The translations under genes were made by a program, and so were the position numbers. A stretch of 64,000 nucleotides of DNA from a virus. Lineage: Duplodnaviria; Caudoviricetes. Positions within the stretch are counted from its first letter, which is position 1. The number at the start of each line of letters is the position of its first letter. Shown piece after piece: positions 41,070 through 56,204 of the stretch. The stretch lies in IMG/VR virus record IMGVR_UViG_3300028907_000004, positions 1 through 64,000 of that record. One strand, 5' to 3'. The notes beneath the pieces are model-generated. The model ran no database searches, was not told where the DNA came from, and saw only the letters and a program-made list of their open reading frames with translations.

Positions 41070-42599
41070 ATGGCCATAAGCAGAAAGAAACTCGACGCAC
41101 GACTGGAAAAGCGCATACTGACCGGCATGATCGTCAGCCGGGAGTACCTGAAACAGATACACCCCATTTTCAAGTCTGAACTTTTTGAAGTCCCGTTTAT
41201 TGCGACAATAGCCCAATGGTGCATAGACCACTTTGAACAGTACGACACGGCCCCTGGCCTAGAAATTCAAAACATCTATGCTTACCATGCCAAGAACAAG
41301 CTACAGGAAGATCAAGCCGAACTGATCGCAGAGTTTCTACAGCGTCTGTCCAGTGAATGGGATGCCTCGCAAGAACTCAATGTTCCATACTTGATCGACC
41401 AGACAGAACAGCGGTTCAAGGAAAGGGCCATGCGCATGGCCCTTGAGGACGCCGAAGCCTACCTGTCCAAAGGCGAAATCCTTGAAGCCGAAAAGCTGCT
41501 GACAGGATTCAAAGCCCCCATGCGACCTAGTGCCGTGGGGGTTGATCCTTTTTTGGACTCTGAAGCAATCTATGACGCCGTTGGAGATCACGACTCCAAT
41601 GCGCTGTTTGCCCTTCCCGGCGATTTGGGGAAGATGCTGGGACCCTTTGAGCGGGAATCGTTTTGGGGCATACTAGCCCCGGAAAAGCGCGGCAAGTCGT
41701 GGCGAATGATTGACATAGCAAACAGGGCCTGGAAGAAACGGTTCCGCGTGGCTATGTTCCAATGCGGCGATATGTCCCAAAGAGCTACCACGGCGCGTAT
41801 TCATTCCAACCTGACGGGAAGACACCCCCGGTACTTCGGCAGATTCCTTATGCCTGTGCTGGATTGCGCGTGGAATCAAGACAATTCGTGTACGGCGCGA
41901 CAGAGAGCCTGCGATTTCGGCGTGCTAGGCAGAAAGGGCCAAATGATGACGTATGAAGAGGCCCCGGACTACGTGCCGTGTTCCTTCTGCCAGCGCAAGT
42001 ACCCGGATGCTTTCAAGGGGGCGGTATGGTACAGGGAAGAAAGCACAGAAAGGCTGAACTTCCAGTATGCGGTAAACTACGCCCAAAAGCTCTCAAAACG
42101 CTACAGGGCCCAACCTTTTAAGCTGTCCACCTATCCGACCAAGACCGTAAATGTCAAGATGATCAACGCCCAGTTAGACATATGGGAAAACACCGAAGGG
42201 TGGGTGCCGGACTTCGTAATCATCGACTATGCGGACATTTTGGCCCCGGAAGACCCGCGAAAAGAATTTCGCCACCAGCAGAACGAAAGTTGGGAGGCGT
42301 TGCGGGCTTTATCCCTAGATCGCAAGTGCTGCGTCATAACGGCCACACAGGCAACGAAAGACGCACACAAGAAGAGACAAACCGGAGTGACCGATATATC
42401 GGAAGACAAAAGAAAGCTCGCACACGTTACGAATATGATCGCCCTCAACCAAACTCCGGAGGAAAAGAGGGCCGGAATCATGAGAATATCACAATTAGCT
42501 GTTCGAGAGGATGAATTTGACGTAGAGGCCAATGTCTGCGTTCTTCAACAATTACGGGTAGGTAATCCCTGTATTGCTAGTTATTTTGATAAAGAGTAA
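41070..42599 (+). CDS. dnaB: DnaB-like replicative helicase
   Basis: ILAPEKRGKS Walker A, VIIDYADIL, VITATQ, ISEDKRK. Confidence 0.88.
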   Translation: MAISRKKLDARLEKRILTGMIVSREYLKQIHPIFKSELFEVPFIATIAQWCIDHFEQYDTAPGLEIQNIYAYHAKNKLQEDQAELIAEFLQRLSSEWDASQELNVPYLIDQTEQRFKERAMRMALEDAEAYLSKGEILEAEKLLTGFKAPMRPSAVGVDPFLDSEAIYDAVGDHDSNALFALPGDLGKMLGPFERESFWGILAPEKRGKSWRMIDIANRAWKKRFRVAMFQCGDMSQRATTARIHSNLTGRHPRYFGRFLMPVLDCAWNQDNSCTARQRACDFGVLGRKGQMMTYEEAPDYVPCSFCQRKYPDAFKGAVWYREESTERLNFQYAVNYAQKLSKRYRAQPFKLSTYPTKTVNVKMINAQLDIWENTEGWVPDFVIIDYADILAPEDPRKEFRHQQNESWEALRALSLDRKCCVITATQATKDAHKKRQTGVTDISEDKRKLAHVTNMIALNQTPEEKRAGIMRISQLAVREDEFDVEANVCVLQQLRVGNPCIASYFDKE

Positions 42600-42697: not shown

Positions 42698-43504
42698 ATG
42701 GCAAAGAAAGTCGAAAAGAAGGAAAAGGGGTTTTGTGGCGTCAAGGGTCTGACCGAAGACATGCTGATCGCCGCCGCCGAAGACCTGAACGCCTCCATTG
42801 GCCTTGATCCGGCCATCGACGTGGAAGACCTCGAAGGCGAAGAACTTCTGGAAGCCGTCAAGACGGGCATGAGCGAAGTCTACACCGCCGACCAGCTGGA
42901 AGACGACACCTGGAAGGTGATGGAACTCCTGGGCATCGAAGCGCAGGAAGCCCCCGAAGAGGAAGAACCGGAACCGGAAGAGAAGCCCAAGGCCAAGGCC
43001 GGCAAGAAGGCTTCCAAGAAGACCGAACCGGAACCGGAAGACGACGACAACGGCGACGATGATGGCGACGATGATGGCGGGGAAGAAGAGGCCCCGAAGT
43101 CCAAGAAGGGCAAGGCCGCTCCCGCCCCGGCCAAGGGCAAGAAGGCCGCGCCCAAGGAAGAGCCGGAAGATGACGGCGATGGCGACGACGATGAGCCGAA
43201 GGCCAAGAAGGGTGCGAAGGCCAAGGCCGAACCCGCCAAGAAAGCCGCTCCCAAGAAGGCCAACGACGGCCCCAAGTACAGCCGTTCTGACGCCTTCGGG
43301 GAAACCCTGATGGCCGGCAAGAAGAACAAGAAGTCCCTGGCCCAGATCATCGAAGATTCCGACGCGCTGTACAGCGAAAACACCGGACGCCGCAGCAATC
43401 CGAAGGAATCCGCCTGGTGCGCCAATCTGTCCCTGAAGGCCCTGGCCGCTTGCGGCTACGTCAAAGTGGACGGCGACAGCGTCGAAATTCTGGTCCGGCC
43501 CTAG
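42698..43504 (+). CDS. Acidic/Lys-rich low-complexity protein
   Basis: AAAGGAG RBS; folded-looking termini separated by alternating D/E and K/A/P blocks. Confidence 0.7.
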   Translation: MAKKVEKKEKGFCGVKGLTEDMLIAAAEDLNASIGLDPAIDVEDLEGEELLEAVKTGMSEVYTADQLEDDTWKVMELLGIEAQEAPEEEEPEPEEKPKAKAGKKASKKTEPEPEDDDNGDDDGDDDGGEEEAPKSKKGKAAPAPAKGKKAAPKEEPEDDGDGDDDEPKAKKGAKAKAEPAKKAAPKKANDGPKYSRSDAFGETLMAGKKNKKSLAQIIEDSDALYSENTGRRSNPKESAWCANLSLKALAACGYVKVDGDSVEILVRP

Positions 43505-43777
43505 CGTCTTATGGTGACGCTGATACTCCTGGCCGAATGGTTACCCACTCCCCGTAACCTTCGGCTGGGAACCCCCACCCGGAAAACGGGCACGAAGCCC
43601 GCAACGACTACCGCACCGCAGAGGCCGGTGGCTGGTCTGGGGAGAGATAACGACAGAACGCCCTGTGAACGGCGTAATTGGAAAGCGCGGCCCCAGCCGT
43701 CCCGCCTACCATAACGGGACCACGCAACATCCGGGCCCAACCCGCCCCCGGCCAGCTTCGGGGGCGGGTTTCTTTTT
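43503..43777 (+). ncRNA. Candidate structured RNA/leader ending in a terminator
   Basis: At least 7 hairpins in a 275-nt intergenic gap (see findings). Confidence 0.45.
43739..43777 (+). terminator. Rho-independent terminator
   Basis: Perfect 12-bp stem AACCCGCCCCCG/CGGGGGCGGGTT plus TCTTTTT. Confidence 0.8.
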
Positions 43778-43796: not shown

Positions 43797-44879
43797 ATGA
43801 AAAGACTCAAGACCCCGTTGACCATTCGTGGGGATTGCTTGTACTGCCCGCTTTCTCTTTCCCTCGACACCTACTGGAACTGTCTTTGTGACTGTTTGCA
43901 TTGCTACCTTCGCCGCTTGAATAGGACTTGGGGAACGGACCTGCGCCCCGTAGAGCACGAGCTTGTGGAAAGAATCCTCACCAACGGTCTGAAGAACAAG
44001 AACCCCAAGACGCCGCTTGCGCACGCCCTAGCCGCCAAGAAGACGCTTCGCTTTGGAAACAAAGCCGATCCCTTTCAACCCGCTGAAAGAATCTACCTTG
44101 TAAGCGCAGAAGCCCTTCGCGCACTCAAAAAACTCCAATGGTCCTTCGTAATCCAGACCATGGTTACTGACGTTATGATGGACTACGAGCGCATCATAAT
44201 GAATTGTCGGGACTTCGCTTGGATTCAGCCTATTATCAGCCCCGGCATGGAAAAGGACTGGGAAGTTCTGGAGCGTAAGCGCACGACAAACCCGATCCAA
44301 CGCCTAGAGCATCTTGTTGCCTTGAAGAAGCAGGGCATGCGCGTAGCTGTAAATGGTGAGCCCTTTATTCCCGGCTTCCATACGGTTCAGGATTTTGAAG
44401 ATACATGTAAACTTCTCCGGTCCTACGGCATCCGAAGATACAACACCTATAACTTTCACTTCAACGATCATGTGGCCAAGAATATGCACGAAGCTGGCAT
44501 AGACATCCGGGCCATTTACGAAAACAACCAAGACGGGCCTTGGAAGAAAATACTCGTCCAGTTGTTAGATATTGCCAAGAAATACGACATTCTGTTGGGC
44601 TGTCCGGACTTTGTGAATACAGGCCCGCAATATCGGGAAATGGCCAATACCTGCTGCGGCGTAGACGTTTCCAACCCAATGACCTTCAATACGCATACAT
44701 GGAAACGTATGATCCAAGACGGGGTTCCCCTTGAGGAAATCTACGAGTCCACCAAAGACGGCGTAGGGGATGAGGAAGAGGGCCGCAAAGTGCTGTTTGG
44801 GGAAGGTCCGCAAGGAATCTATACGATGGAAGATGCCGGACTTGTAAAGAAGGGTAAAGTTCTGGACACCAAGGAGTAG
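43797..44879 (+). CDS. Radical SAM enzyme, SPL-like (1)
   Basis: CLCDCLHC (CxxxCxxC); GNKADPFQPAE; NGEPFIPG. Confidence 0.85.
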   Translation: MKRLKTPLTIRGDCLYCPLSLSLDTYWNCLCDCLHCYLRRLNRTWGTDLRPVEHELVERILTNGLKNKNPKTPLAHALAAKKTLRFGNKADPFQPAERIYLVSAEALRALKKLQWSFVIQTMVTDVMMDYERIIMNCRDFAWIQPIISPGMEKDWEVLERKRTTNPIQRLEHLVALKKQGMRVAVNGEPFIPGFHTVQDFEDTCKLLRSYGIRRYNTYNFHFNDHVAKNMHEAGIDIRAIYENNQDGPWKKILVQLLDIAKKYDILLGCPDFVNTGPQYREMANTCCGVDVSNPMTFNTHTWKRMIQDGVPLEEIYESTKDGVGDEEEGRKVLFGEGPQGIYTMEDAGLVKKGKVLDTKE

Positions 44880-44881
44880 CC

Positions 44882-45748
44882 ATGCTGATACACACCCCGG
44901 TAGAGAAGTACAGTGGCATCTATGTGAAAAGGGAGGATATGGCCGTAAACGATCCCACGGCCCCGCCCTTTTCCAAGATGCGTGGAGTTCTGGCGCATCT
45001 TACCAAGTTACGTGATTCCGGCATCAGAACAGTAGGATACGCCGAAAGTGCCATTTCTATGGCTGGTTGGGGACTTGCTTGGACCGCCCGGCAGCTTGGC
45101 CTTCAAGCGGTTATTTTTGCCCCTGTGTACAAATGCGACCACCCATATCTTGAAGTGTTGCGTATGCATAGAAAACACTGGGAGCGTCTTGGGGCACAAA
45201 TAGTGCCCATGCCGGCGGGACGTACCAAGATCATTTATTATCAGGGCCGGAAGTGGATGGAGGACCATTACCCGAAAAACAGCGAAATGTTGCCCATCGG
45301 TATGAGTTTCCCCGAAACCGTAGAGGCTACTGCCGCAGAGTACGTTTGGACGCTGAAAGAGTACAAACTCCAGCCCAAAAACGTCGTGTTGTGCGTAGGA
45401 AGCGGAACCATTGCCGCCGGGGTGGCACGAGGAATTGCGGAGAGCAATTTGAAAACGAAGCTCTGGGGAATACTCACGCGGGACGGTAGCGTGCCGGAAA
45501 AACTGCGCTACATGGAAAAACTCGCAGGGTTTCCTCTATCCTCCGAGGGCATGCTGGGCACGTTCTCTTCCGCTTCGGTTACATTGCTGAGTTCTGGGTT
45601 CGAATACACACAGAAATCCAAGATCGTTGTCCCCTTTCCCTGCAATCCCTATTACGACGCAAAAGCGTGGGAGTGGCTTGCTAGCAGAAAGTCTACCTAC
45701 GAAGAATTTAACAGAAAACAAACGCTTTTTTGGAACATCGGGGCCTAG
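44882..45748 (+). CDS. PLP-dependent enzyme, fold type II
   Basis: TPVE...IYVKRED...SKMRG (PLP lysine); CVGSGTIAAG phosphate loop. Confidence 0.85.
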   Translation: MLIHTPVEKYSGIYVKREDMAVNDPTAPPFSKMRGVLAHLTKLRDSGIRTVGYAESAISMAGWGLAWTARQLGLQAVIFAPVYKCDHPYLEVLRMHRKHWERLGAQIVPMPAGRTKIIYYQGRKWMEDHYPKNSEMLPIGMSFPETVEATAAEYVWTLKEYKLQPKNVVLCVGSGTIAAGVARGIAESNLKTKLWGILTRDGSVPEKLRYMEKLAGFPLSSEGMLGTFSSASVTLLSSGFEYTQKSKIVVPFPCNPYYDAKAWEWLASRKSTYEEFNRKQTLFWNIGA

Positions 45749-45779
45749 TCTGTAAATATCCTCGTAGGAGGACAAAAAT

Positions 45780-46454
45780 ATGAAACTCGACGCATTTGTT
45801 GAATTACGCAATAGGCTTCTAGCCAAAGACCCCAATTTCATCGTCATACGCAAAACCCCGGCGGTACTGAACGCACTAGGCCCGTCCAACGACGGCAAGG
45901 TGTGGTATTGGGACGCGGTAAACGGAAGGGCCATTCTTGTGTACACGGTGGAGTCCGCGGCCAACCTAGCCGCCGACTTCTCCAAATACGAAAAAAGGGC
46001 CGAACAGTTCCTCAACAAACTCCTCAATCAGCCCATTAAGCCGTTGTCTTTTGGAATCACGCAGACGAAAGAAGACTGGTTCGACAAGATATTTAGGGAA
46101 GCGGCGACGAAGATTTGTAAAGAAATAAAAAACGACAGAGCTTTCTTCGTTACAATGGAGCCTGGCGACTATGTTGTTTGGGAAGTTGTAGACGATCCCG
46201 CGAAGGAAGTGGATGTCCAGTTTTACTCCCGACTGTCCCCAGATATTGAGAACCGCTTTTCCCGAAAGACCAGAAATCAGACTTCCGGAATAATCCACAT
46301 GTTGTTGGACTTGACATTTCCCGACAATTCCAATATCATGTTTTTCTTCGGAAAGTATGAGCGCGAAGACGGTTCCATCTTTCTGGAAGTGAAAGGCGGC
46401 TACAAGAAACAACAGGGCATCGTTATTCAGTTCAATGACGTAACTCGCATCTAG
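45780..46454 (+). CDS. Hypothetical protein
   Basis: GGAGG RBS; 224 aa inside the enzyme cluster. Confidence 0.6.
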   Translation: MKLDAFVELRNRLLAKDPNFIVIRKTPAVLNALGPSNDGKVWYWDAVNGRAILVYTVESAANLAADFSKYEKRAEQFLNKLLNQPIKPLSFGITQTKEDWFDKIFREAATKICKEIKNDRAFFVTMEPGDYVVWEVVDDPAKEVDVQFYSRLSPDIENRFSRKTRNQTSGIIHMLLDLTFPDNSNIMFFFGKYEREDGSIFLEVKGGYKKQQGIVIQFNDVTRI

Positions 46455-46464
46455 TGGAGAGACA

Positions 46465-47901
46465 ATGACCAAGAAAGAACTTCTTCAGATGGATTACTGG
46501 GAACTGCGTAAAGTGGTTTCCAAACTCGTTCCTCGCACGTTCCGTCTTCGGGAAGACGCCAGAAAGGGCGAAGCGGTCAAGGAAAAGGGCAGAAAAAAGA
46601 ATTACCACCAATACGATCTGGTGGGACAGGAAATGACCAAGCGGGAACGCCTTCTGAATACGGAAGAGGTCAACAGCTTTCTCGAAATATCCTGCCGGGC
46701 CCAAGCCTGCCCTATGCCGCTGAATTTGGACGTGTATGACGGCCTTCTTTGTGGCTTCAAATGCATCTATTGCTACGCCGACGCCTTCCGCGCCTCCCTG
46801 TACACATCTTTCTTCGATAACAGCAAATCCGTGGGACTTCGCCACTGTAATCCGGACTTCTACAAGGCGAAGCTGGACGATCTGTTCAATAAGTCCCTGG
46901 GAAAAGACCCGTTGGAAATCAAGAGCGACGTTGGAAAGGCTCTGGCCAAGCGCATTCCCATTCGTTTCGGTATTCGGTTTGAAGACTTTCTGCCCGCAGA
47001 AAAGTCGAAAGGGATCAGCCTGGAACTTCTGAATTACCTCCGGAAAGCCCAGTACCCGCTGATGATCAACACCAAGTCCAACCTCGTAGGCGAAGACGCC
47101 TACGTGAAGGCTTTGAGTGGGAATAAGGCCAAGACCGCCGTACACATCACTATGATTTCCTGTGACGAAGACTTCTTGCGGGTAATTGAGCCGGGGGCAC
47201 CCACCTTTGAAAAACGCATCCAAGCTGCCAAGAATCTCGTGGACGCTGGCGTGCGTGCCGTTGCCCGAATCGAACCCTATATGGTGTTCTTGAACGATTC
47301 GCAGGACATGGTTCAAGAATACTTTGGACGAATGAAGGAAGCTGGGGTCACGCATCTTACCTTTGACACATACTCCTATTCCGCCAACAACCCCGGAATC
47401 CGCCAGAATTTTGTTAGAAGGGGCTATGACTGGGAACGTATGTTCCTCCTTACCTCCGATTCCCAGGCCATAGGCTCGCTCCTGCTCTCTAAATTCATGG
47501 AGATGTTTAGAGAGCAGGGGTTTTCCGCTTCCAGTTTTGATATGGGCGGCGTTCCCGATAACAACGACCCCATTTGTTGTTCTGTAGGCGATTGGTTTAA
47601 GGATGCTGGCTATAATTGGGGTTGCGTGGTTGGGGCGGTTCGGTACATCAAGGAACGCGGCCTGAAGCCTACGTCGTGGAATAATTTCCACAGATACGTG
47701 ATGCGCAACGGCGGCTTCCTATCTAGGGTTCTTGAAGAAGAGGTCAAGGAACTCTGGAACCTGGAAGGAAATGCGTCCTACTTCGTCAATTGGGGTCGCG
47801 GTATTGAGCCTTGCGGTCATGATGAGCATGGAATCCTCTGGCATTACAGGGAAAACCCCGAAACCGACTTTCGCTATAAAATACTGGAGGGGGTGGTATA
47901 A
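46465..47901 (+). CDS. Radical SAM enzyme, SPL-like (2)
   Basis: CGFKCIYC; GIRFEDFLPAE; INTKS; IEPGAPTFEKRIQA; ARIEPY. Confidence 0.85.
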   Translation: MTKKELLQMDYWELRKVVSKLVPRTFRLREDARKGEAVKEKGRKKNYHQYDLVGQEMTKRERLLNTEEVNSFLEISCRAQACPMPLNLDVYDGLLCGFKCIYCYADAFRASLYTSFFDNSKSVGLRHCNPDFYKAKLDDLFNKSLGKDPLEIKSDVGKALAKRIPIRFGIRFEDFLPAEKSKGISLELLNYLRKAQYPLMINTKSNLVGEDAYVKALSGNKAKTAVHITMISCDEDFLRVIEPGAPTFEKRIQAAKNLVDAGVRAVARIEPYMVFLNDSQDMVQEYFGRMKEAGVTHLTFDTYSYSANNPGIRQNFVRRGYDWERMFLLTSDSQAIGSLLLSKFMEMFREQGFSASSFDMGGVPDNNDPICCSVGDWFKDAGYNWGCVVGAVRYIKERGLKPTSWNNFHRYVMRNGGFLSRVLEEEVKELWNLEGNASYFVNWGRGIEPCGHDEHGILWHYRENPETDFRYKILEGVV

Positions 47902-48159
47902 ATGGAATTTAGCTATTTGAAGTTTCTCCTATACGCAGGGGGGCTTGCCGTCTTTCTTTTCTTTTTCAACATGTGGTATTTTCGCCGTCTTCAGACAGCA
48001 GCAGCCCGTCGTCAGAGAAAAGAAGAAGAGGCGCATATCGAAAACATAAAGAAATGGAAAAGCTACGCTGTTACTTGTAAGAAGTTTGAGAACGGCGAAT
48101 GCGACCTGTCCATTGCTTGTGATACTTGTTCATATTATAAGGAGCCTGAAGATGAGTAA
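47902..48159 (+). CDS. Small membrane protein with Cys tail
   Basis: N-terminal TM; C...C...CDTC. Confidence 0.45.
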   Translation: MEFSYLKFLLYAGGLAVFLFFFNMWYFRRLQTAAARRQRKEEEAHIENIKKWKSYAVTCKKFENGECDLSIACDTCSYYKEPEDE

Positions 48160-48961
48160 GAAGGTCAATAAACTTCCAGAAGAAACAATGAAACAAATCT
48201 TCGCACACGCGGTAGCCCTGGATCAGAACGGCAGGTTGAGAAATACCATCTACGCGAAGGATTCCACCGTGTACGTCCTGAACTCTGACAACACTGTTCT
48301 GCTTCGCTTCAGTACGAGCCAGCCCCTTCCGATTGACGGCGAAGTCCGTTTCAAGGCGTCCGACTACGAAGGCGACAGCTTCCAAATCGAAGACGGCAAG
48401 ATGGTATTCACGACTCGTTGCGGCGGCGTGGAAAGAAAGAAGTCCTGCGGCCTTCCGGACCTGACCTTTGCTGATGTGGAACACATCTTCGATTCTCATG
48501 AGCCGGATACCGATGAGCCGTTTGCCGCCGCCCTGGTCCTGACGAAGGACATCGTTTCCATCCTCGACGAGAACCTTTCTCATGTCGAAATTAGTGGCGA
48601 TAAGAAGACGGGGTGGCTCATAGTCCAGCGGGACATCTACAGCGGCGCAAAAGTGGAAATACGGCAGATCAAGGCACACGGTATGGGCGTACACGATGCG
48701 TCCGAAGTGAGCCAGAACTTCGGCCCCATCGGTTTGCGCACCAACGACTTCATTGCCCTGTTCCTGTTCCACGGTTCGATCAACTTTGCTTTCCAGTTAC
48801 TGGAAAAACGCGTTGTCTATATCGAAGCGGAAACGGCGGCATACGATCTGAAAGGCGTAGTTGCCCAGTGCGTCTACGATGAGATGGGCACTATAGGGGC
48901 CACAATTTCCGAGGAATCCGAGGAAAAAAAGAAACCTACTAGACGAACCACAAAGAAGTAG
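48152..48961 (+). CDS. Hypothetical protein, possibly sliding-clamp fold
   Basis: About 250 aa with two helix-plus-strands halves; AAGGAG RBS; fold call is tentative. Confidence 0.5.
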   Translation: MSKKVNKLPEETMKQIFAHAVALDQNGRLRNTIYAKDSTVYVLNSDNTVLLRFSTSQPLPIDGEVRFKASDYEGDSFQIEDGKMVFTTRCGGVERKKSCGLPDLTFADVEHIFDSHEPDTDEPFAAALVLTKDIVSILDENLSHVEISGDKKTGWLIVQRDIYSGAKVEIRQIKAHGMGVHDASEVSQNFGPIGLRTNDFIALFLFHGSINFAFQLLEKRVVYIEAETAAYDLKGVVAQCVYDEMGTIGATISEESEEKKKPTRRTTKK

Positions 48962-49000
48962 CTAGAAGGTTTGTAAATACTTTCAACGGAGGGAGTTTCT

Positions 49001-49150
49001 ATGGGAGGAAAGAGCAGAAAGACGGGAGGCGTCAGCAAGGCCCTCATCGACAAGCTCACCGGATCGCAGGTACAAAAGGAACGTAAAGGCAAATCCAAAC
49101 AATCCAAGTCCGACGCTGCCGACAAGAAGGCGGGGATGGGCGTAGGATAA
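49001..49150 (+). CDS. Small basic peptide (MGGKSRK...)
   Basis: GGAGGGAG RBS; 49 aa, Lys/Gly/Ser-rich. Confidence 0.55.
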   Translation: MGGKSRKTGGVSKALIDKLTGSQVQKERKGKSKQSKSDAADKKAGMGVG

Positions 49151-49182
49151 ATCACCAAAACACCGTAAAGGAGAAACAGACC

Positions 49183-49623
49183 ATGGCCAAGAAAGAAGCA
49201 CCCAAGACCACGAAGAAAGCCGCCCCCGCCGCCAAGAAGACCGCCGCCAAGAAGACCGCCGCCAAGGGCAAGCCCACCGGCAAAGAATCCATTCTCGACA
49301 AGGCCCGTGCCGCACGCGAAGCCGCCAAGGAAAACGCCCAGGCGTCCATCTCCAAGGACGGCCTTCTGAAGGAAATCGCCAAGAAGCTGGGCATTGCCAA
49401 GGACGACGTTCAGACCGTCGTTGACGCCTTCCTCGACGCCGCCGGACAGCACCTGGCCGCTGGCGAGAAGGTCAGCGTCCACGGCTTCGGCATCTTCAAC
49501 ACTTCCGTCATGGCTGCTCGTGACGGAGTCAACCCCCTGACCGGCGAACCCATGCACATCGCGGAATCCACCCGCGTCACGTTCAAGGCTTCCACCGCCC
49601 TGAAGGAACTCGTCAACGGGTAA
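49183..49623 (+). CDS. hup: HU/IHF-family DNA-binding protein with AKK-rich N-tail
   Basis: VSVHGFGIF...ARDGVNPLTGEPMHI...VTFKASTALKELVN. Confidence 0.92.
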   Translation: MAKKEAPKTTKKAAPAAKKTAAKKTAAKGKPTGKESILDKARAAREAAKENAQASISKDGLLKEIAKKLGIAKDDVQTVVDAFLDAAGQHLAAGEKVSVHGFGIFNTSVMAARDGVNPLTGEPMHIAESTRVTFKASTALKELVNG

Positions 49624-49627
49624 TTCC

Positions 49628-50449
49628 ATGCTCAATTACCTTACGCTCATGGAACAGGCGGGGATCGCCCCGAACTTTTGGACCAGCAGGGCGTACTTGG
49701 AAAGAGCAGGAGCAGTAGAACAGACAAAAGGGAACCTCATCTGGCTGGAAGCGGATGAGGTTCCGCTTTTTCCCACCCTGTCCTTTTCTGGTATGATCGC
49801 ACCTATGCGAGAATGGCCGGTTCAGTATTGCTGGAGCGACTTTGAGGGCTTCTCCTCCGAAACGACCAACAAGGAATTTCTGGATTATGAGTTTATCTAT
49901 AACCCAACCGACTTTCTTGAGATGGCTGGAGGAAAATGGGCTGTGTTTAGAAAAAACAGCCGTAAATTTCCACGCCGTTTCGAAGGGTCCGTCTATTCCA
50001 GAGGATATGTCCCTAGCTACGGGGATTTGGTCGGATTGCTACAAAGGTGGGCTAGTCGTTTTAACGAAGACGACACTATTCACGACGCCGCCATTATCCT
50101 AAAGTATTTGGAAGACCTTTCCCCTGGTGTGGATTTTGGCTGGAAAACGCTTCGATTGAATAATACCCATAAACCAGAAGATTTGGTGGGAATTAATATC
50201 TGGGACCGTAACTGGAAGTATATCAACTTCCGGTACTGTTTTTGTGATCCCGATTACCCTTTTATTTCAGAATACATGCGATGGTTGTTTTATACGGACC
50301 CCGCCATACTTGCGCAGAAGCGCCTTGTATGTGACGGCGGGTCCGTAGATCGTCCAGAATTAAAAGCCTTCAAAGAAAAAATGAACCCGCTCCAAGTCCG
50401 TGAAGTATATACTTGGGGCAAAGAACCAGGAGAAGGATATGGAGATTGA
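49628..50449 (+). CDS. DUF2156/MprF-C-like aminoacyl-tRNA-dependent transferase (GNAT/Fem fold)
   Basis: DYEFIYNPTDFLEMAGGKWAVFRKNSRKF and CDGGSVDRPELKAFKEKMNP resemble the DUF2156 motifs DYxY..DL..L.GKK...KRN and DLG.EGLRKAK...P. Confidence 0.65.
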   Translation: MLNYLTLMEQAGIAPNFWTSRAYLERAGAVEQTKGNLIWLEADEVPLFPTLSFSGMIAPMREWPVQYCWSDFEGFSSETTNKEFLDYEFIYNPTDFLEMAGGKWAVFRKNSRKFPRRFEGSVYSRGYVPSYGDLVGLLQRWASRFNEDDTIHDAAIILKYLEDLSPGVDFGWKTLRLNNTHKPEDLVGINIWDRNWKYINFRYCFCDPDYPFISEYMRWLFYTDPAILAQKRLVCDGGSVDRPELKAFKEKMNPLQVREVYTWGKEPGEGYGD

Positions 50450-51461
50450 TAGAAAGCAGCTACTGGACGCGCTTACCCTGGCCCGTCCCGGTCTTGCCTC
50501 TTCGGACGTTGTAGAACAGGCGTCCATGTTCGTGTTTCGTCCCAAGGACATTGTAACCTTTAATGACGAACTTTGCGTGCGCGTCAAGATCAAGTCCGGT
50601 ATCGAAGGCGCTGTCCAGGCTCAAGAGCTTTACGCCTACCTTTCCAAGAGTAAGGCCGAAAAGCTCACGATGGAAACGACGGAAGACGAACTCATCATCA
50701 AGGCCGGGAAGCGCGCAAGCGTAGGCATCCGGCTGTCCAGCAAAATCTACCTTCCGGTGGACGGGATCAATGATGCGGAATCCTTTGAACCGCTTCCCAA
50801 GAACTTTACCAAGGCCCTGTCCCTGGTATCGCAGACGGCGGCGAAAAACGCCTCAAGCATGCCCATTCTTGCTGCTCTTCATTTCGTAGGGGACAAGGTG
50901 GAATCCTGCGACAATTTCCGGATCACCGCCTACACATTTGAAGAAGGCACCGACTTCCCCGAATTTTTGCTTCCGGCAAACATGGTCAAGGAAGTGCTCA
51001 AATTTGAGCCGGTAGAGTATTCTGTTGTCGAGGGTTGGGCGCACTTCCGAACTGCCGAGGGTGTGTGGCTCTCGTGCCGTACCGTGGCTGCGGGGCCGAA
51101 GGGCTACCCGGACCTGTCCGGAATCGTAGAAGTTGAAGGCGTCACTATCGAATTTCCCGAAGGTTTCGCAGAAGTTCTGGACAGGGCTTCCGTTTTTGTT
51201 GATAAATCCGCTACCTTGGACGAGTTTGTAACAATTTCTGTAAAAGAGGGTAGAGCGTCTGTCGTAGCGGAAGGGACTATGGGTTGGTTCAGGGAATCGG
51301 TGAAAGTAGACTCTGATAATCCGGAATGCTCTTTTAACGTCAATCCCGGCTTTCTGTCTGGAATCCTTCCGCTTCTGTCCAACGCTATCGTGGGCGACAA
51401 CTACCTGCGACTGGACGGTGAGGATTTCCTTCACGTTATGTGTTTGTGTGTAGAAAAATAG
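50439..51461 (+). CDS. dnaN: DNA polymerase III beta-like sliding clamp
   Basis: 340 aa, three domains; VESCDNFRI, GYPDLSGI, CSFNVNPGFL. Confidence 0.8.
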   Translation: MEIDRKQLLDALTLARPGLASSDVVEQASMFVFRPKDIVTFNDELCVRVKIKSGIEGAVQAQELYAYLSKSKAEKLTMETTEDELIIKAGKRASVGIRLSSKIYLPVDGINDAESFEPLPKNFTKALSLVSQTAAKNASSMPILAALHFVGDKVESCDNFRITAYTFEEGTDFPEFLLPANMVKEVLKFEPVEYSVVEGWAHFRTAEGVWLSCRTVAAGPKGYPDLSGIVEVEGVTIEFPEGFAEVLDRASVFVDKSATLDEFVTISVKEGRASVVAEGTMGWFRESVKVDSDNPECSFNVNPGFLSGILPLLSNAIVGDNYLRLDGEDFLHVMCLCVEK

Positions 51462-52463: not shown

Positions 52464-52817
52464 GTGGCCAGACGAAAACCGCCGAAGACGAAGGAAATCA
52501 CGCTCAAAGAGCTTCTGTATAAAATACGGAAGACCTATGACGACGCCATAGACGAACTACGCAAGGAACAGGAACAGAAATTGCGGGAAGCCATTACCAA
52601 ATTCTGCCCACTTCCCAAAGAAAAAGAGTTTCTTGTGGCGGATTACTCCTTCAAAGGGAAAACTTTCCAATACAAAGACTTTCGGCATCAATGGGGCGAT
52701 GTTATTCTGTTCGGCGGGACGCTTCGTAATAATGGCGAAGTATCAGAAAAACAGTATTGCGAGTCCAGAATCAACACCGAGCATATAAAAATCACAGTAC
52801 CCGCAGAGGAAGAGTAA
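52464..52817 (+). CDS. Hypothetical protein
   Basis: GGAGG RBS; GTG start. Confidence 0.55.
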   Translation: MARRKPPKTKEITLKELLYKIRKTYDDAIDELRKEQEQKLREAITKFCPLPKEKEFLVADYSFKGKTFQYKDFRHQWGDVILFGGTLRNNGEVSEKQYCESRINTEHIKITVPAEEE

Positions 52818-55429
52818 TGGCCGGATTCTTTCAGAAGGATGACGTATCACACGGAGCTAGGGTCAAGCCCAAGCAAAAAGTCGAAGCGTTTGGAACTTGC
52901 GAGACTTGCGGGCTGTATGAATATGGAAATTCCGTCAAACCCTTTGGAGAGAACAGAAAGCGCATAATGATTGTGACCGAAACCCCTTCAGAAGGGGAGG
53001 CCCGAAAAGGCAAGATGTGGTCTGGGGAGCAAGGGCAGCTTCTCCGATCCATTTTGCGCGAGAACGGAATTGACCTGAATCGGGATTGCGTGTCCATCTA
53101 CGCAGTACGATGTAACATTCCAGAAGACCGCAACCCCCAACCCAACGAAGTTATCGGGTGTCGGGATAAACTGTTCAAAGCCATCGAGAAATACGAGCCT
53201 AGACTGGTCGTATCATTGGGCTATTTTGCTTTGTTTGCTCTTATAGGGCATCGGATGGGCGACGGGCTGGGCGGCACGCTTGATCGCTGGAGAGGGGCCA
53301 AAATTCCGTATCACGAAATCGGAGCGTGGCTGTGTCCTACATTCCATCCTATCTACGTGATGGCAAACGAGAAAAACCCCAACGTCGAACTCTACTGGGA
53401 ACGGGACATCAAGAATGCTATATGCCAGCTGGACAAAGAACTTCCAAATCCCATTAACGAAGATTCGGTTGACGTTTTGGTGGAGCCGAAAGACATCAAA
53501 GATCGGCTTGGTTATCTCCTTTCCCGTCCAGACGAAATCAGAGCCGCAGTAGACTGGGAAACAACGGGCCTGAAGCCCCATGCCAAGGGGCACCGCATCT
53601 TTACCGCCGGATTTTCTACGGGGCTTGATAACACATTTGCCTTTAAGATGGAACCGCAGTACCGGGAACCGCTCATACAAATCGCCAAAAGCCGAACCGT
53701 GGCGAAAATAGCGGCCAACATGAAATTCGAAGATACGTGGGCCCGGCAATGCCTGGGGACACATATCAACAATTGGTATTGGGACACTATGGTTGCGCAG
53801 CATGTTATCGACAACCGCCGTTACATTACCGGCCTCAAATTCCAATCCGCTGTCCGTTATGGCGTATGGGATTATGATTCTGAAATCTCTCCTTACTTGA
53901 GGGCCGAAGACGAAAGCAACGCAAACGCCTTCAACCGCATATATCAGGCCCCCTTACCGAAACTGCTAAAGTACAACGGTATGGACTGCCTACTTGAGTT
54001 CCTTCTCCATGAAGATCAGATTTCCGAAGTAAACGAACAAGGCACTATGGACGGCTACATGCTATTACATGCCGGAATACTTGCGCTGTCCGATATGGAA
54101 TGGCGCGGCCTTCCGGTAGAAGATACGCACGTGGTCCAAGAGATCAGACGCCTTGAACAGGAAGTCGCAGAAATCGAACAAAGCATATGGGCGTCCAAAG
54201 AAGGGAAGAAATGGAAAAAGAAGTATGGAACGGACGCCAATTGGAATAGTAATCAGCAGTTTGTAGAAGTGCTTTCTGAATGCGGCGTAGAGTTTGAAAA
54301 GAAGACCGCCAGTGGGCAGTTCGCCGCCGACAAGGGCGTTCTGGAGATGTTGGACCATCCCATTGCGAAGCAAATCCTACGTGCCAGAAAGCTGACGAAG
54401 AACGGGGGAACATTCCTGGCCAATATCCGGAAAGAGGCCGTAAGTGGCTCTCTCCATCCAATACACAACCTTCACAAGGTTATCACATTTCGGTCTTCCT
54501 GCGAATCCCCGAACACGCAGAACATGCCTAAACGTGACGAAGAGTCCATGAAGATCGTCCGGGCGTCCTTTCGCGCCCCGAAGGGTAAGTGTATTGCTGA
54601 AATCGACTATTCCGGTGTTGAGGTCCGGGTGGGGTGTTGCTACCACCGGGACAAAAATATGGAGCGGTACATTCTCGACACTTCTACCGACATGCATAGG
54701 GACGAAGCCTGTTCCATATTTTGTTTTGATCCCTATTACATCAACACTGAAGTAATTCAGGGAAGCGACGACTTGGCCCAGAAATACTTCAAGGCGATTC
54801 GAAACAGCGCAAAAAACGGATGGGTCTTTGCCCAGTTCTATGGTGACTGGTACAAGGCTTGTGCGAAGAACATCTGGAATCAGATCACTCACTGGAACCT
54901 CAAGGCCCCGGACGGACGGCCCTTGTTTGACCATCTCCGAAAACAGGGAATCAAAAACCTCAAGGATTTCGAATCCCATCTCAAGGACTGTGAGCGGAAA
55001 CTCTGGGAAGAACGCTTTGGTGGGTACGGTAAGTGGAAGGAGAAGACCTGGAAGAAGTATATGAAACAGGGCTACCTGGACACCTATACGGGTATGCGGT
55101 TGTCGGCCCTTTCCTCCAGAAATGAAATCCTCAATGCCCCGATCCAGGGAAGCGCGTTCCACTGCCTGTTATGGTCCGTTATTGAAATGAACAAGAAGCT
55201 CAAGAAGGAAAAGTGGGAAACCGTGCCAGTAGCCCAGATTCATGACTCTTGTATTTTCATAACCACTCCTGACGAGATAGATGAATTGTATAAAGTAGCA
55301 CACGAGATAATGTGCGTAAAGATTGTAAAACACTGGCCCTGGCTAGTCATTCCACTTGAAATAGATATGGACATTACAGAACCGGGAGGGGCCTGGAGTG
55401 AGCAAGAGTCCTATAAGCCCACAAAATAG
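52817..55429 (+). CDS. polA: Family A DNA polymerase with N-terminal UDG-like domain
   Basis: UDG4-like CETC...RC...GC and TFHPIYV; exonuclease DWETTG; polymerase DYSGVEVRV, RNSAKNGWVFAQFYG, QIHDS. Confidence 0.92.
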   Translation: MAGFFQKDDVSHGARVKPKQKVEAFGTCETCGLYEYGNSVKPFGENRKRIMIVTETPSEGEARKGKMWSGEQGQLLRSILRENGIDLNRDCVSIYAVRCNIPEDRNPQPNEVIGCRDKLFKAIEKYEPRLVVSLGYFALFALIGHRMGDGLGGTLDRWRGAKIPYHEIGAWLCPTFHPIYVMANEKNPNVELYWERDIKNAICQLDKELPNPINEDSVDVLVEPKDIKDRLGYLLSRPDEIRAAVDWETTGLKPHAKGHRIFTAGFSTGLDNTFAFKMEPQYREPLIQIAKSRTVAKIAANMKFEDTWARQCLGTHINNWYWDTMVAQHVIDNRRYITGLKFQSAVRYGVWDYDSEISPYLRAEDESNANAFNRIYQAPLPKLLKYNGMDCLLEFLLHEDQISEVNEQGTMDGYMLLHAGILALSDMEWRGLPVEDTHVVQEIRRLEQEVAEIEQSIWASKEGKKWKKKYGTDANWNSNQQFVEVLSECGVEFEKKTASGQFAADKGVLEMLDHPIAKQILRARKLTKNGGTFLANIRKEAVSGSLHPIHNLHKVITFRSSCESPNTQNMPKRDEESMKIVRASFRAPKGKCIAEIDYSGVEVRVGCCYHRDKNMERYILDTSTDMHRDEACSIFCFDPYYINTEVIQGSDDLAQKYFKAIRNSAKNGWVFAQFYGDWYKACAKNIWNQITHWNLKAPDGRPLFDHLRKQGIKNLKDFESHLKDCERKLWEERFGGYGKWKEKTWKKYMKQGYLDTYTGMRLSALSSRNEILNAPIQGSAFHCLLWSVIEMNKKLKKEKWETVPVAQIHDSCIFITTPDEIDELYKVAHEIMCVKIVKHWPWLVIPLEIDMDITEPGGAWSEQESYKPTK

Positions 55430-56204
55430 CAAACGAATTCGTTTGGTGCTTACAAAACGTACAGATTTGCGCCTTTTGATACGAATGGAAGATCACTATT
55501 CAAAACCACAAGGTTTTGTAGGAAGAAATTTATGTTATGCTGTGTATTGCGATAACGCCTATTATGGACACATAGTGGCCGGGTCCGCTACCAAGCACTT
55601 GTCTGGAAGGCATGAATTTCTAGGAACCACACAAGAACAGCTTAACAATATAGTGAACAACATCTTTTTTAATGTGTCCCCAGTCGAAGGAAAGTATCCA
55701 TTTAGAAATTTTACATCTGCTGTTGTAAAAGAATTTGTAAAAAAAGTAAAAGTGGATTGGCCTAGATTTTATCAAGATTCTGTGCTAGGGTTTGAAACGC
55801 TTGTAGAACTCCCAAGAAAAGGAACACTATACCTACGCGCTGGTTGGTCTGTTGTCGGTCAAACAAAAGGCTACACGTGCAAAAGAACTGCCGGCACAGG
55901 AACGGACTCTTGGAGTGGAAAGCGGGTTTGGAATACCGATCCGGAACAATTACGCCCTAAATTGATATTGTGTTTTCGAGTAAAACCAAAAAGGAGAAAC
56001 CATCATGCCCCTTCACTTGGACCATCGTCCCAAAACCCTCAAGAAGGTTGTAGGCCAGGGCGCGACGGTAGCTGCCCTCAAGGCGGTACTGGAACGCGAC
56101 GACATCCCGCACGCCTTCCTCTTCCACGGCCCGTCCGGGTGCGGAAAGACCACCCTGGCCAGAATCGTAGCCAAAAAGCTGGGATGTTCGGAAATGGATA
56201 TTAA
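55398..56204 (+). CDS. DUF4338 (DruA)/Mom-like GNAT protein
   Basis: IVNNIFF...NFTSAVV...DWPRFYQDSVLGFETLVELPRKGTLYLRAGWSVVGQTKG; AT-rich; C-terminus overlaps dnaX. Confidence 0.6.
   Translation: MSKSPISPQNSKRIRLVLTKRTDLRLLIRMEDHYSKPQGFVGRNLCYAVYCDNAYYGHIVAGSATKHLSGRHEFLGTTQEQLNNIVNNIFFNVSPVEGKYPFRNFTSAVVKEFVKKVKVDWPRFYQDSVLGFETLVELPRKGTLYLRAGWSVVGQTKGYTCKRTAGTGTDSWSGKRVWNTDPEQLRPKLILCFRVKPKRRNHHAPSLGPSSQNPQEGCRPGRDGSCPQGGTGTRRHPARLPLPRPVRVRKDHPGQNRSQKAGMFGNGY

Follow-up and report, generated by a model that had tools for sequence, protein, structure and literature searches.

Gene content of the interval

The interval 43797..50449 lies on the + strand of the window (the whole 64,000-nucleotide stretch of phage DNA analysed here), between genes for a DnaB-like helicase and a beta-like sliding clamp; the source phage genome is complete, with 78 kb. 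All genes whose coordinates are given below are on the + strand. On the upstream flank, a DnaB-like replicative helicase is encoded at 41070..42599, a weak assignment (PF03796 E 2.9e-4, below the cut-off) with a syntenic tblastn match in 51 of 80 related loci, together with an SSB-like protein at 42698..43504 (phrog_15004, single-strand DNA binding protein, E 2.8e-8). Downstream, the ORF of the beta-like clamp (50400..51461, phrog_947 E 5.6e-28) overlaps the 3′ end of the DUF2156 gene (49628..50449) and comes after it in 73 of the 80 loci; a family A DNA polymerase whose N-terminus carries a UDG-like domain lies at 52757..55429 (PF00476 E 1.2e-39, PF03167 E 1.1e-17). Genes for ThyX and dCMP deaminase are located just beyond the window edge, and the source genome also carries a dNMP-kinase-like gene. 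The original prediction had placed two SPL-like radical SAM genes, a fold-II PLP enzyme and a DUF2156-like protein between DnaB and clamp, and all four were confirmed on the + strand, positions included.

The first radical SAM gene, rSAM1 (43797..44879), encodes an SPL/PA0069-like protein. Its ORF opens with GTG at 43665; the ATG at 43797 fits the homologs of 343–366 aa. The C29-x3-C33-x2-C36 motif (CxxxCxxC) is invariant in 36 homologs, and family matches were found to phrog_13321 (E 2.9e-11) and NCBIfam PA0069 (E 6.7e-10). The protein is related to gp53, the glycinyl-thymine isomerase of phage M6 (BLASTP E 3e-8; hhalign 96% probability, E 2.8e-9). rSAM2 (46465..47901), the core radical SAM of the cassette, matches PF04055 with 36.1 bits (cut-off 29.5 bits); C96, C100 and C103 are invariant in 33 homologs at a mean column identity of 59%, and additional conserved cysteines are found at C82, C128, C355, C371 and C372. 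Comparison by hhalign gave a probability of 88% for rSAM2 versus gp53 and of 98.5% for rSAM1 versus rSAM2. Judged from these alignments the two proteins are paralogs, both related to the DNA-acting M6 gp53, the relationship to gp53 being remote with an identity of about 20%.

Directly after rSAM1 follows the fold-II PLP enzyme (44882..45748; PF00291 48 bits, cut-off 35 bits; phrog_7093 E 5.7e-51), a full-length homolog of the M6 decarboxylase gp52 with 35% identity (E 1e-51). In a set of 32 sequences that includes gp52, the catalytic-type lysine K32 and the SGT loop S174-G175-T176 are kept in no fewer than 31. Phage records matched by the enzyme number 68 (53 Pseudomonas, 9 Bordetella, 6 others) and include those of M6 and its relatives. 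Together with the gp53 relationships of rSAM1 and rSAM2, this homology bears out the proposed membership in the thymidine-hypermodification families.

The protein encoded at 49628..50449 is a candidate aminoacyl-tRNA-dependent transferase of the DUF2156/MprF-C/FemX tandem-GNAT type. On its own, the window protein gives no Pfam match above threshold, PF09924 (DUF2156) included, although 20 of 40 homologs match that family. A profile of the family finds PDB 2hqy (E 6e-4), and the AF2 model (pLDDT 94) aligns with Z 21.6 to 2hqy, ∼15 to MprF, ∼13.7 to Sbb17/Sba18 and ∼12 to FemX, in agreement with the GNAT/Fem fold predicted before, at identities of just 10–14%. The nearest solved relatives of the fold are all aminoacyl-tRNA-dependent transferases: MprF, A-PGS/L-PGS, Sbb17/Sba18 and FemX. 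A basic helix at residues 102–117, which binds the tRNA acceptor stem in the DUF2156/MprF/FemX class, is conserved (K103, R108, K109, R112, K113, R116, R117). The protein carries no membrane domain, unlike MprF. No conserved tRNA gene was found near the cassette, and no fusion of DUF2156 to a DNA-binding domain was seen, which is weak evidence.

The original prediction had left the PCNA-like clamp, the HU protein and two small window-specific ORFs of the interval unnamed. The first of these, at 48152..48961, has a PCNA/9-1-1-like sliding-clamp fold (AF2 model, pLDDT 85.6) and is a core member of the cassette; top Foldseek matches are PCNA and Rad9-Hus1-Rad1 (E about 5e-10), structural matches in the ESM Atlas are Rad9, PCNA and gp45, and the protein was not found in cultured phages. 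The HU/IHF-type DNA-binding protein at 49183..49623 bears a Lys/Ala-rich N-terminal tail (PF00216 E 1.2e-25). Its gene is not part of the conserved cassette and occurs, among the loci, only in L003. A 224-aa ORF (45780..46454), which has no family match and lies outside the conserved cassette, and an 85-aa ORF (47902..48159), whose product is hydrophobic at the N-terminus and Cys-rich at the C-terminus, were likewise seen only in L003, a near-identical locus.

Conservation and variation of the cassette

The arrangement recurs in 80 DUF2156-seeded and 79 rSAM2-seeded IMG/VR loci and is thus not due to chance; its carriers are a large group of divergent, uncultured phages from wastewater and sediment. 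All non-redundant loci but one (48 of 49) contain two full-length radical SAM genes upstream of DUF2156 as well as the PCNA-like gene, and two or three radical SAM paralogs occur together per cassette. Conversely, DUF2156 follows in 69 of the 69 rSAM2-seeded loci with enough downstream sequence. The conservation of these genes as a set is confirmed; an M6 gp52-type PLP enzyme is present here and in about half of the relatives. In locus L057 DUF2156 is found directly upstream of the beta-like clamp without radical SAM or PCNA-like genes, so that it is not strictly dependent on them. All co-occurrence comes from one syntenic phage clade, and common descent could account for the adjacency. The DUF2156 family is spread over 103 IMG/VR stretches; in 185,579 species genomes it was found on just 4 MAG contigs, and 50,697 GenBank phage records contain no member.

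The PLP gene occupies a tailoring slot between the two radical SAM genes. In sister phages this slot is filled by a flavin lyase homologous to PaMx11 gp47, by an aldo-keto reductase (AKR) or by a DUF362 protein, and elsewhere by DNA methylases or a TET-associated glycosyltransferase. An FAD enzyme replaces the PLP enzyme in L078, L079 and L037; it aligns to PaMx11 gp47 with 27% identity over 91% coverage (E 4e-22), and its 20 phage matches, which include PaMx11 and Ab18, all belong to phages of Pseudomonas, Stenotrophomonas or Rhizobium, apart from an unnamed phage record.

Relation to known DNA modification systems

In M6, 5-(2-aminoethyl)-dU is made by a dUMP hydroxymethylase, the 5-hmdU kinase gp54/55, the amino acid:DNA transferase (ADDT) gp51, the radical SAM isomerase gp53 and the PLP decarboxylase gp52. 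The cassette shares with M6 the full-length gp52 homolog and adjoining gp53-related SPL-like radical SAM proteins among replication genes. It differs in the number of radical SAM paralogs, two or three against the single one of M6, and in having the PCNA-like clamp and the DUF2156 transferase as core members. It also differs at the entry of the pathway: neither a dUMP hydroxymethylase of the ThyA family nor a 5-hmdU kinase (HMUDK) nor an ADDT was found in the complete 78-kb genome. The absence of ADDT (aGPT-Pplase) and 5-hmdU kinase, noted originally for the window, thus extends to the whole genome and to 26 long relatives (0 of 26), while the same search gave a positive result for the M6 control. 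A ThyA-family gene is present in 3 and ThyX in 5 of the 26 relatives. With all known starting enzymes missing from the route, its entry chemistry would differ from that of every described thymidine hypermodification, and charged tRNA may be the source instead.

The PaMx11 pathway to 5-acetylaminomethyl-dU uses the ADDT gp46, the flavin lyase gp47 and the GNAT acetyltransferase gp48. Similarities are the gp47 homolog in the tailoring slot of sister loci and a GNAT-superfamily acyltransferase in the gene set. However, the entry enzymes are missing, the window carries the PLP and not the flavin variant of the slot, and the GNAT protein is of the tandem DUF2156 type, whose relatives use aminoacyl-tRNA rather than acetyl-CoA.

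The original prediction called the resulting modification undescribed. Aminoacylation of a DNA base from tRNA is, however, already known: Mom of phage Mu glycylates N6-adenine in dsDNA in a Gly-tRNA-dependent manner (2026; PMC13219725), and the cassette would not be the first case. The precedent at the same time counts in favor of a tRNA-dependent route; if our reading holds, both systems would have a phage GNAT-superfamily enzyme moving an amino acid from a charged tRNA to DNA. Mom consists of one GNAT domain and acts on its own, whereas the GNAT protein found here is a tandem one placed amid radical SAM and PLP enzymes. The DUF2156 protein is not a relative of Mom, as no sequence relationship is detectable (hhalign probability 0.7%). 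It shares the tandem-GNAT fold and the conserved basic helix with the C-terminal aaPG synthase domain of MprF, BT 2hqy, Sbb17/Sba18 and FemX/FemA, but differs from MprF, 2hqy, Sbb17/Sba18 and FemX in being soluble, free-standing, phage-encoded and part of a replication operon.

Proposed pathway and alternatives

This phage group probably carries a new DNA hypermodification pathway. More specifically, there is perhaps an even chance that the interval represents a post-replicative DNA base hypermodification cassette within the replication operon, with the radical SAM pair, the PCNA-like protein and DUF2156 as its core. From the observed folds, homologies, gene conservation and missing known entry enzymes we infer substrate, donor, step order and product as follows. 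The radical SAM enzymes would act on DNA, where they would construct or rearrange a base side chain derived from an amino acid, most likely on thymine and through a C5-methyl radical, the chemistry common to SPL and M6 gp53. The PLP enzyme would then remove the carboxyl group of the side chain and leave a primary amine, and the pathway would run without 5-hydroxymethyl-dU, 5-hmdU kinase or ADDT. The product is most likely a DNA base bearing an amino-acid-derived side chain. The PCNA-like protein may keep the enzymes on freshly replicated DNA.

On the basis of its fold and of synteny within just one phage clade, we tentatively assign the DUF2156 enzyme to this pathway as well, where it would transfer an aminoacyl group from host aminoacyl-tRNA. 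It could act late and cap the side-chain amine, as a counterpart of the acetyl-CoA-dependent PaMx11 gp48, or provide the entry step onto the exocyclic amine of a base, as in Mom. If the carboxyl of the aminoacyl group forms the bond to a base amine, a gp52-type decarboxylase finds no free carboxylate left, so the order originally suggested, transfer followed by radical steps and the PLP step, is chemically awkward.

A less probable but serious alternative is that only the radical SAM and tailoring enzymes make up the hypermodification pathway, while DUF2156 adjoins the clamp merely by descent and aminoacylates another target, such as a lipid, a cell-wall precursor, or the N-terminus or a lysine of a protein, for instance a clamp. 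The gene content of L057 and the clamp gene abutting DUF2156 in most loci fit this explanation, and the characterised DUF2156 relatives all target lipids, peptides, proteins or small molecules. However, DUF2156 follows rSAM2 in every informative rSAM2-seeded locus, its family is nearly confined to the cassette-bearing clade, the protein lacks the membrane domain of MprF, and acyl-capping by a GNAT enzyme is the established final step in PaMx11. It appears improbable that the cassette produces a modified nucleotide or small molecule before replication, akin to a nucleoside antibiotic or a dNTP precursor, instead of modifying polymer DNA. Radical SAM, PLP, AKR, FAD and aminoacyl-tRNA-dependent transferase enzymes indeed form a set typical of natural-product pathways, Sbb17/Sba18 and PacB tailor nucleoside or aminosugar antibiotics in an aminoacyl-tRNA-dependent manner, and dCMP deaminase, ThyX and the dNMP-kinase-like gene are encoded in the genome. 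Yet the identifiable homologs M6 gp52, M6 gp53 and PaMx11 gp47 all use DNA polymers, a PCNA-like clamp is among the core members, and the nucleotide-pool enzymes are not conserved with the cassette, as the ThyX and ThyA counts indicate. It is very improbable that the radical SAM proteins are spore-photoproduct-lyase-type repair enzymes among unrelated metabolic genes: their top annotated families are ‘DNA repair photolyase’ (phrog_9252) and PA0069/Rv2578c, but the scores of 38–57 bits are far below the family cut-offs of 360–430, the paralogs always occur together, and the slot between them exchanges homologs of known hypermodification tailoring enzymes.

In a hypermodification pathway, DNA-directed radical chemistry at the thymine methyl group would be the likely theme common to the cassette enzymes and SPL/COG1533 proteins (PA0069, Rv2578c). 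Both have the CxxxCxxC radical SAM core, with partial HMM matches between them. No sequence-level match was obtained to the solved SPL, and rSAM2 differs from this group by its extra conserved cysteines.

Gene order and conservation of the cassette

The IMG/VR record comprises 78,463 bp and is rated 100% complete; the window is its first 64 kb. A replication operon lies on the + strand from ~35 kb of the window onward, and all genes listed here for the window lie on this strand. The operon includes a SNF2 helicase, a primase-like gene, a DnaB-like helicase (41070–42599) and, directly before the cassette interval, an SSB-like gene (42698–43504). Eight genes were found within the interval 43797–50449: the radical SAM gene rSAM1 (43797–44879), a fold-II PLP enzyme (44882–45748), an ORF without assigned family (45780–46454), the second radical SAM gene rSAM2 (46465–47901), an 85-aa ORF (47902–48159), a 269-aa PCNA-like protein with a clamp fold (48152–48961), an HU protein (49183–49623) and a DUF2156-like protein (49628–50449). 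They are followed by a beta-like clamp of 353 aa (50400–51461), a family A DNA polymerase with an N-terminal UDG-superfamily domain at residues 63–212 (52757–55429) and an intein-bearing clamp-loader AAA+ gene (56005–58068; DNA_pol3_delta2, RFC lid); RecA, FEN and an ATP-dependent ligase also belong to the operon. The original prediction had placed two radical SAM genes, a PLP enzyme and a DUF2156-like gene between the DnaB-like gene and the clamp, and this arrangement was confirmed by motifs, PF00291 and homolog and profile matches.

Two genes of the interval show features restricted to the window phage and the near-identical locus L003. The 85-aa ORF, found only in these two, has an N-terminal hydrophobic segment and a C-terminal CDLSIACDTCSYY motif and extends into the start of the PCNA-like ORF. 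The HU/IHF-fold protein bears a Lys/Ala-rich, histone-H1-like N-terminal extension of 50 residues, again only in this pair. The clamp-loader intein gives Intein_splicing and Hint_2 matches at ~residues 104–487. The fusion of UDG domain and polymerase has the same architecture in Vibrio SSP002-like phages (97% coverage); activity or modified-base sensing are candidate roles of the UDG domain.

A search of IMG/VR with the DUF2156-like profile yielded 103 stretches, from which 80 loci were retained that share 31–45% identity, bar one near-identical contig. The gene order is constant: DnaB, (SSB), radical SAM, tailoring slot, radical SAM, PCNA-like, DUF2156, clamp, UDG-PolA and clamp loader. In a non-redundant set of 49 loci covering DnaB to DUF2156, exactly two full-length radical SAM genes lie upstream of DUF2156 in 48 loci and the PCNA-like gene is present in 48; five loci carry a third radical SAM gene downstream of DUF2156. 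Independent seeding with rSAM2 gave 133 relatives, of which 79 loci were analyzed. DUF2156 was present in all 69 loci with downstream room, the remaining 10 being cut contigs. The co-occurrence of the cassette genes, put forward beforehand as a check, is thus borne out. The sole exception is locus L057, where DUF2156 adjoins the clamp and a TET-associated glycosyltransferase occupies the position of the radical SAM and PCNA-like genes.

The tailoring slot between the two radical SAM genes is variable: among the 49 loci it holds the PLP enzyme in 22, an aldo-keto reductase in eight, DUF362 in six and a flavin oxidoreductase in two, and several loci have DNA methylases in addition. With its swappable contents, the slot is comparable in behaviour to the regions of combinatorial tailoring in known hypermodification clusters. 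Further variation was seen around the cassette. DUF362-type loci carry a second rSAM2-like copy in place of rSAM1 (upstream cases listed: L004, L005, L018, L029, L055, L082). In L014, L034, L036, L041, L042 and L063, DUF2156 is followed by a third radical SAM paralog, with a conserved 113-aa ORF ahead of the paralog. N6/N4 DNA methyltransferase genes (PF01555) lie within or directly after the cassette in L005, L015, L021, L051, L056, L061 and L066. TET-associated glycosyltransferase genes (PF20691) occupy or adjoin the cassette position at L057:4710–5855 and at ~10737–11799 of L082, the latter as three short ORFs that are perhaps broken or recoded.

Radical SAM and PLP enzymes and the entry enzymes of known pathways

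The CxxxCxxC motif is invariant in rSAM1 and rSAM2 (36 and 33 homologs, respectively). The two proteins are paralogs (hhalign 98.5%); they match phrog_13321 and show partial matches to the PA0069/Rv2578c ‘DNA repair photolyase’ families. Scores stayed below the curated cut-offs of these NCBIfam families, with 38.5 and 56.6 bits against a cut-off of 360 and 27.2 and 52.3 bits against 430. The SPL-like glycinyl-thymine isomerase gp53 of Pseudomonas phage M6 is related to rSAM1 (hhalign 96.1% probability, E 2.8e-9; BLASTP E 3e-8) and to rSAM2 (hhalign 88.5% probability, E 2.7e-6); this relationship is remote (~21% identity) and therefore does not imply the same activity. Comparison of the rSAM1 and rSAM2 profiles with PDB sequences gave no meaningful match. 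On inspection of the C-termini, rSAM1 ends in a conserved FYTLKDAGL-like tail and rSAM2 in a DFRxxLL tail, neither of which corresponds to a PIP or beta-clamp motif of canonical form.

The PLP enzyme scores above the PF00291 cut-off and is homologous to M6 gp52 over its full length (BLASTP 35% identity, E 1e-51; E 5.7e-51 to the gp52-type phrog_7093). The PLP lysine K32 and the phosphate loop S174-G175-T176 are kept in at least 31 of 32 sequences. Phage matches to this enzyme come from 68 records, 53 of Pseudomonas, nine of Bordetella and six others, M6 and its relatives included. The flavin oxidoreductase found in the tailoring slot of sister phages is homologous to PaMx11 gp47 (E 4e-22), a lyase that converts N-alpha-glycinylthymidine to 5-aminomethyl-dU. 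M6 gp52 decarboxylates C-alpha-glycinylthymidine to 5-(2-aminoethyl)-dU (PMC8989533). By their homologies, two independent tailoring enzymes point to amino acid–pyrimidine conjugates on DNA.

To our knowledge, all amino-acid-derived thymidine hypermodifications described so far start from 5-hydroxymethyl-dU and require a DNA kinase and an amino acid:DNA transferase. No dUMP hydroxymethylase of the ThyA family (PF00303) was matched in the phage's own complete genome. A ThyA-family gene occurs in three of 26 long relatives, 11 of which are at least 90% complete, and one of these genes scores as canonical ThyA (414 bits). Neither a 5-hmdU DNA kinase (PF18723/PF18748; M6 control 189.6 bits) nor an amino acid:DNA transferase of the aGPT-Pplase2 type (PF18724; M6 control 159.7 bits) was found in the own genome or the 26 relatives. 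What the original prediction had stated of the window, that it holds no such transferase or kinase, extends to the whole genome and the 26 relatives, with both M6 controls positive. TET/JBP dioxygenases, an alternative source of 5-hmU, gave 0 matches in 27 records in a search that had no positive control. As judged from the genome sequence, none of the entry enzymes known from 5-hmdU-dependent thymidine hypermodification (Lee et al. 2018/2021) was found in this phage. A published metagenome survey of thymidine hypermodification used the kinase as seed, and the clade therefore fell outside it.

ThyX is present in the own genome and in five of the 26 long relatives. Genes for a dNMP-kinase-like protein, dCMP deaminase and ThyX are consecutive just outside the window, at ~68317–70191 of G000 (L084:6318–8192), with SbcCD-like genes and an ATP-dependent ligase upstream; the three are an ordinary dTMP supply set.

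The DUF2156-like and PCNA-like proteins

The DUF2156-like protein of the window itself had no Pfam match at E ≤ 0.01. PF09924 (DUF2156/LPG_synthase_C) was matched by 20 of 40 homologs at E ≤ 0.1 (best 6.6e-6) and was precomputed on six of 73 homologs; the family profile leads to the DUF2156 structure 2hqy with E 6e-4. The AF2 model (pLDDT 94.2) displays a tandem GNAT fold that aligns with 2hqy over its whole length (VIA-align Z 21.6, rmsd 3.1, 253 residues; Foldseek E 1.8e-9). MprF and PG synthases follow with Z 14–15, the aa-tRNA-dependent peptide synthases Sbb17/Sba18 with Z ~13.7 and FemX/FemA with Z ~12 (Sbb17/Sba18 and FemX together 12–13.8), and all of these rank above acetyl-CoA tandem GNATs. 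The GNAT/Fem fold on which the original prediction had been staked beforehand is therefore present by AF2, VIA-align and Foldseek.

In aa-tRNA-dependent transferases the tRNA acceptor stem is bound by a positively charged helix (PMC6103681). Helix 102–117 of the DUF2156-like protein is strongly basic (K103, R108, K109, R112, K113, R116, R117), with R108, K109 and N110 invariant and K113 nearly so. Judged by HMM alignment to 2hqy, this is the equivalent helix, and the protein keeps the predicted acceptor-stem-binding helix of the aaPGS/Fem/Sbb17 class. A relationship to Mom was ruled out (hhalign probability of 0.7% for the family profile against Mu Mom). We found no longer or fused forms of the DUF2156-like protein, which is weak evidence. 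No tRNA gene that could serve as dedicated donor is present in the window or the remaining genome, and 40 related loci contain only three tRNA genes, scattered and all different.

The 269-aa protein encoded between rSAM2 and the DUF2156-like protein matches PCNA and 9-1-1 subunits in Foldseek (E ~5e-10, probability 1.00), with ESM Atlas TM values of 0.60–0.67 to Rad9 and PCNA. On these models it is predicted to be a two-domain clamp of the PCNA/9-1-1 type and not an enzyme. The phage thus encodes two differing clamp-fold proteins, the PCNA-like one with a basic disordered tail and the beta-like clamp. The PCNA-like gene accompanies the radical SAM genes, and L057 is without both.

Candidate pathway, alternatives and occurrence

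Amino-acid-derived DNA hypermodification is an already known kind of chemistry, and since 2026 so is tRNA-dependent DNA aminoacylation. In contrast to the known thymidine pathways, however, the cassette is without their entry enzymes, and unlike Mom it employs an unrelated DUF2156-like protein (hhalign); paired radical SAM enzymes and a dedicated clamp-fold protein further set it apart from both. If gp52- and gp47-type intermediates are reached without the known entry enzymes, a new entry chemistry on DNA is implied, and its likely form is a canonical base activated by radical SAM.

In view of the observed folds, homologies, conserved gene set and absence of known entry enzymes, the radical SAM and tailoring genes probably constitute a DNA hypermodification pathway. 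By analogy with SPL and gp53, the radical SAM enzymes would act on DNA and would build or rearrange a side chain derived from an amino acid, the thymine C5-methyl being the most plausible site. The PLP enzyme would decarboxylate the side chain; in sister phages a flavin lyase or reductase would take its place. The DUF2156 enzyme, the sole acyl-transfer catalyst of the set, might cap the side-chain amine with an aminoacyl group, in parallel to the acetyl-CoA GNAT gp48 of PaMx11 and the amide-forming Sbb17, or it might act at entry and aminoacylate an exocyclic amine of a base, as Mom does with Gly-tRNA on N6-adenine (PMC13219725). For the PCNA-like protein, a tethering of these enzymes to new DNA is a possible role. 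We give this best explanation, taken as a whole, an even chance; that the DUF2156 enzyme belongs to the pathway and uses aa-tRNA falls slightly short of that. The most far-reaching form is put forward tentatively and is rather unlikely: a clamp-tethered set would attach an amino acid to a canonical base in replicated DNA without a 5-hmdU intermediate. Radical SAM would activate the base, DUF2156 would take the amino acid from aminoacyl-tRNA of the host, and swappable enzymes (PLP, flavin or reductase) would then sculpt it; the outcome would be a family of hypermodified bases, as yet undescribed, in a widespread phage clade. The original prediction had arranged the steps as transfer, two radical steps and a PLP step. 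Once an aminoacyl group is joined via its carboxyl, a gp52-type decarboxylase has no carboxylate left to act on, so that this literal order is awkward.

Alternatively, the target of the DUF2156 enzyme could be a protein, a lipid or something else, with the enzyme standing beside the cassette by descent only. L057 favours such a role elsewhere, and we consider the separate role a doubtful but serious alternative. That the genes serve a pre-replicative nucleotide or small-molecule pathway is improbable, and plain SPL-type repair is more improbable still.

Should the DUF2156 enzyme take part in the hypermodification pathway, it would be only the second enzyme class, next to Mom, to modify DNA with charged tRNA, and the first such modifier inside a multi-enzyme pathway. 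Bases of this kind bear on phage resistance to restriction and CRISPR and on metagenome sequencing artefacts, and for biotechnology they are a source of DNA-modifying enzymes.

Among 50,697 GenBank phage records, DNA and protein searches gave no match to the cassette DNA, rSAM1, the DUF2156-like or the PCNA-like protein; rSAM2 had three weak fecal-virome matches only, and of the cassette proteins the PLP enzyme is the exception that has counterparts there. The closest cultured relatives by polymerase are the Vibrio SSP002-like phages, which share the backbone of clamp, polymerase and clamp loader without the cassette. Among 185,579 species genomes the DUF2156-like gene occurs on four MAG contigs only. 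At least half of the sampled words of the cassette sequence were detected in activated-sludge and wastewater runs of seven studies (P1–P7) from 2019 to 2025, and owing to this recurrence material for testing should be obtainable. One of the seven studies may be the source sample, and some of the runs are labelled metatranscriptomic.
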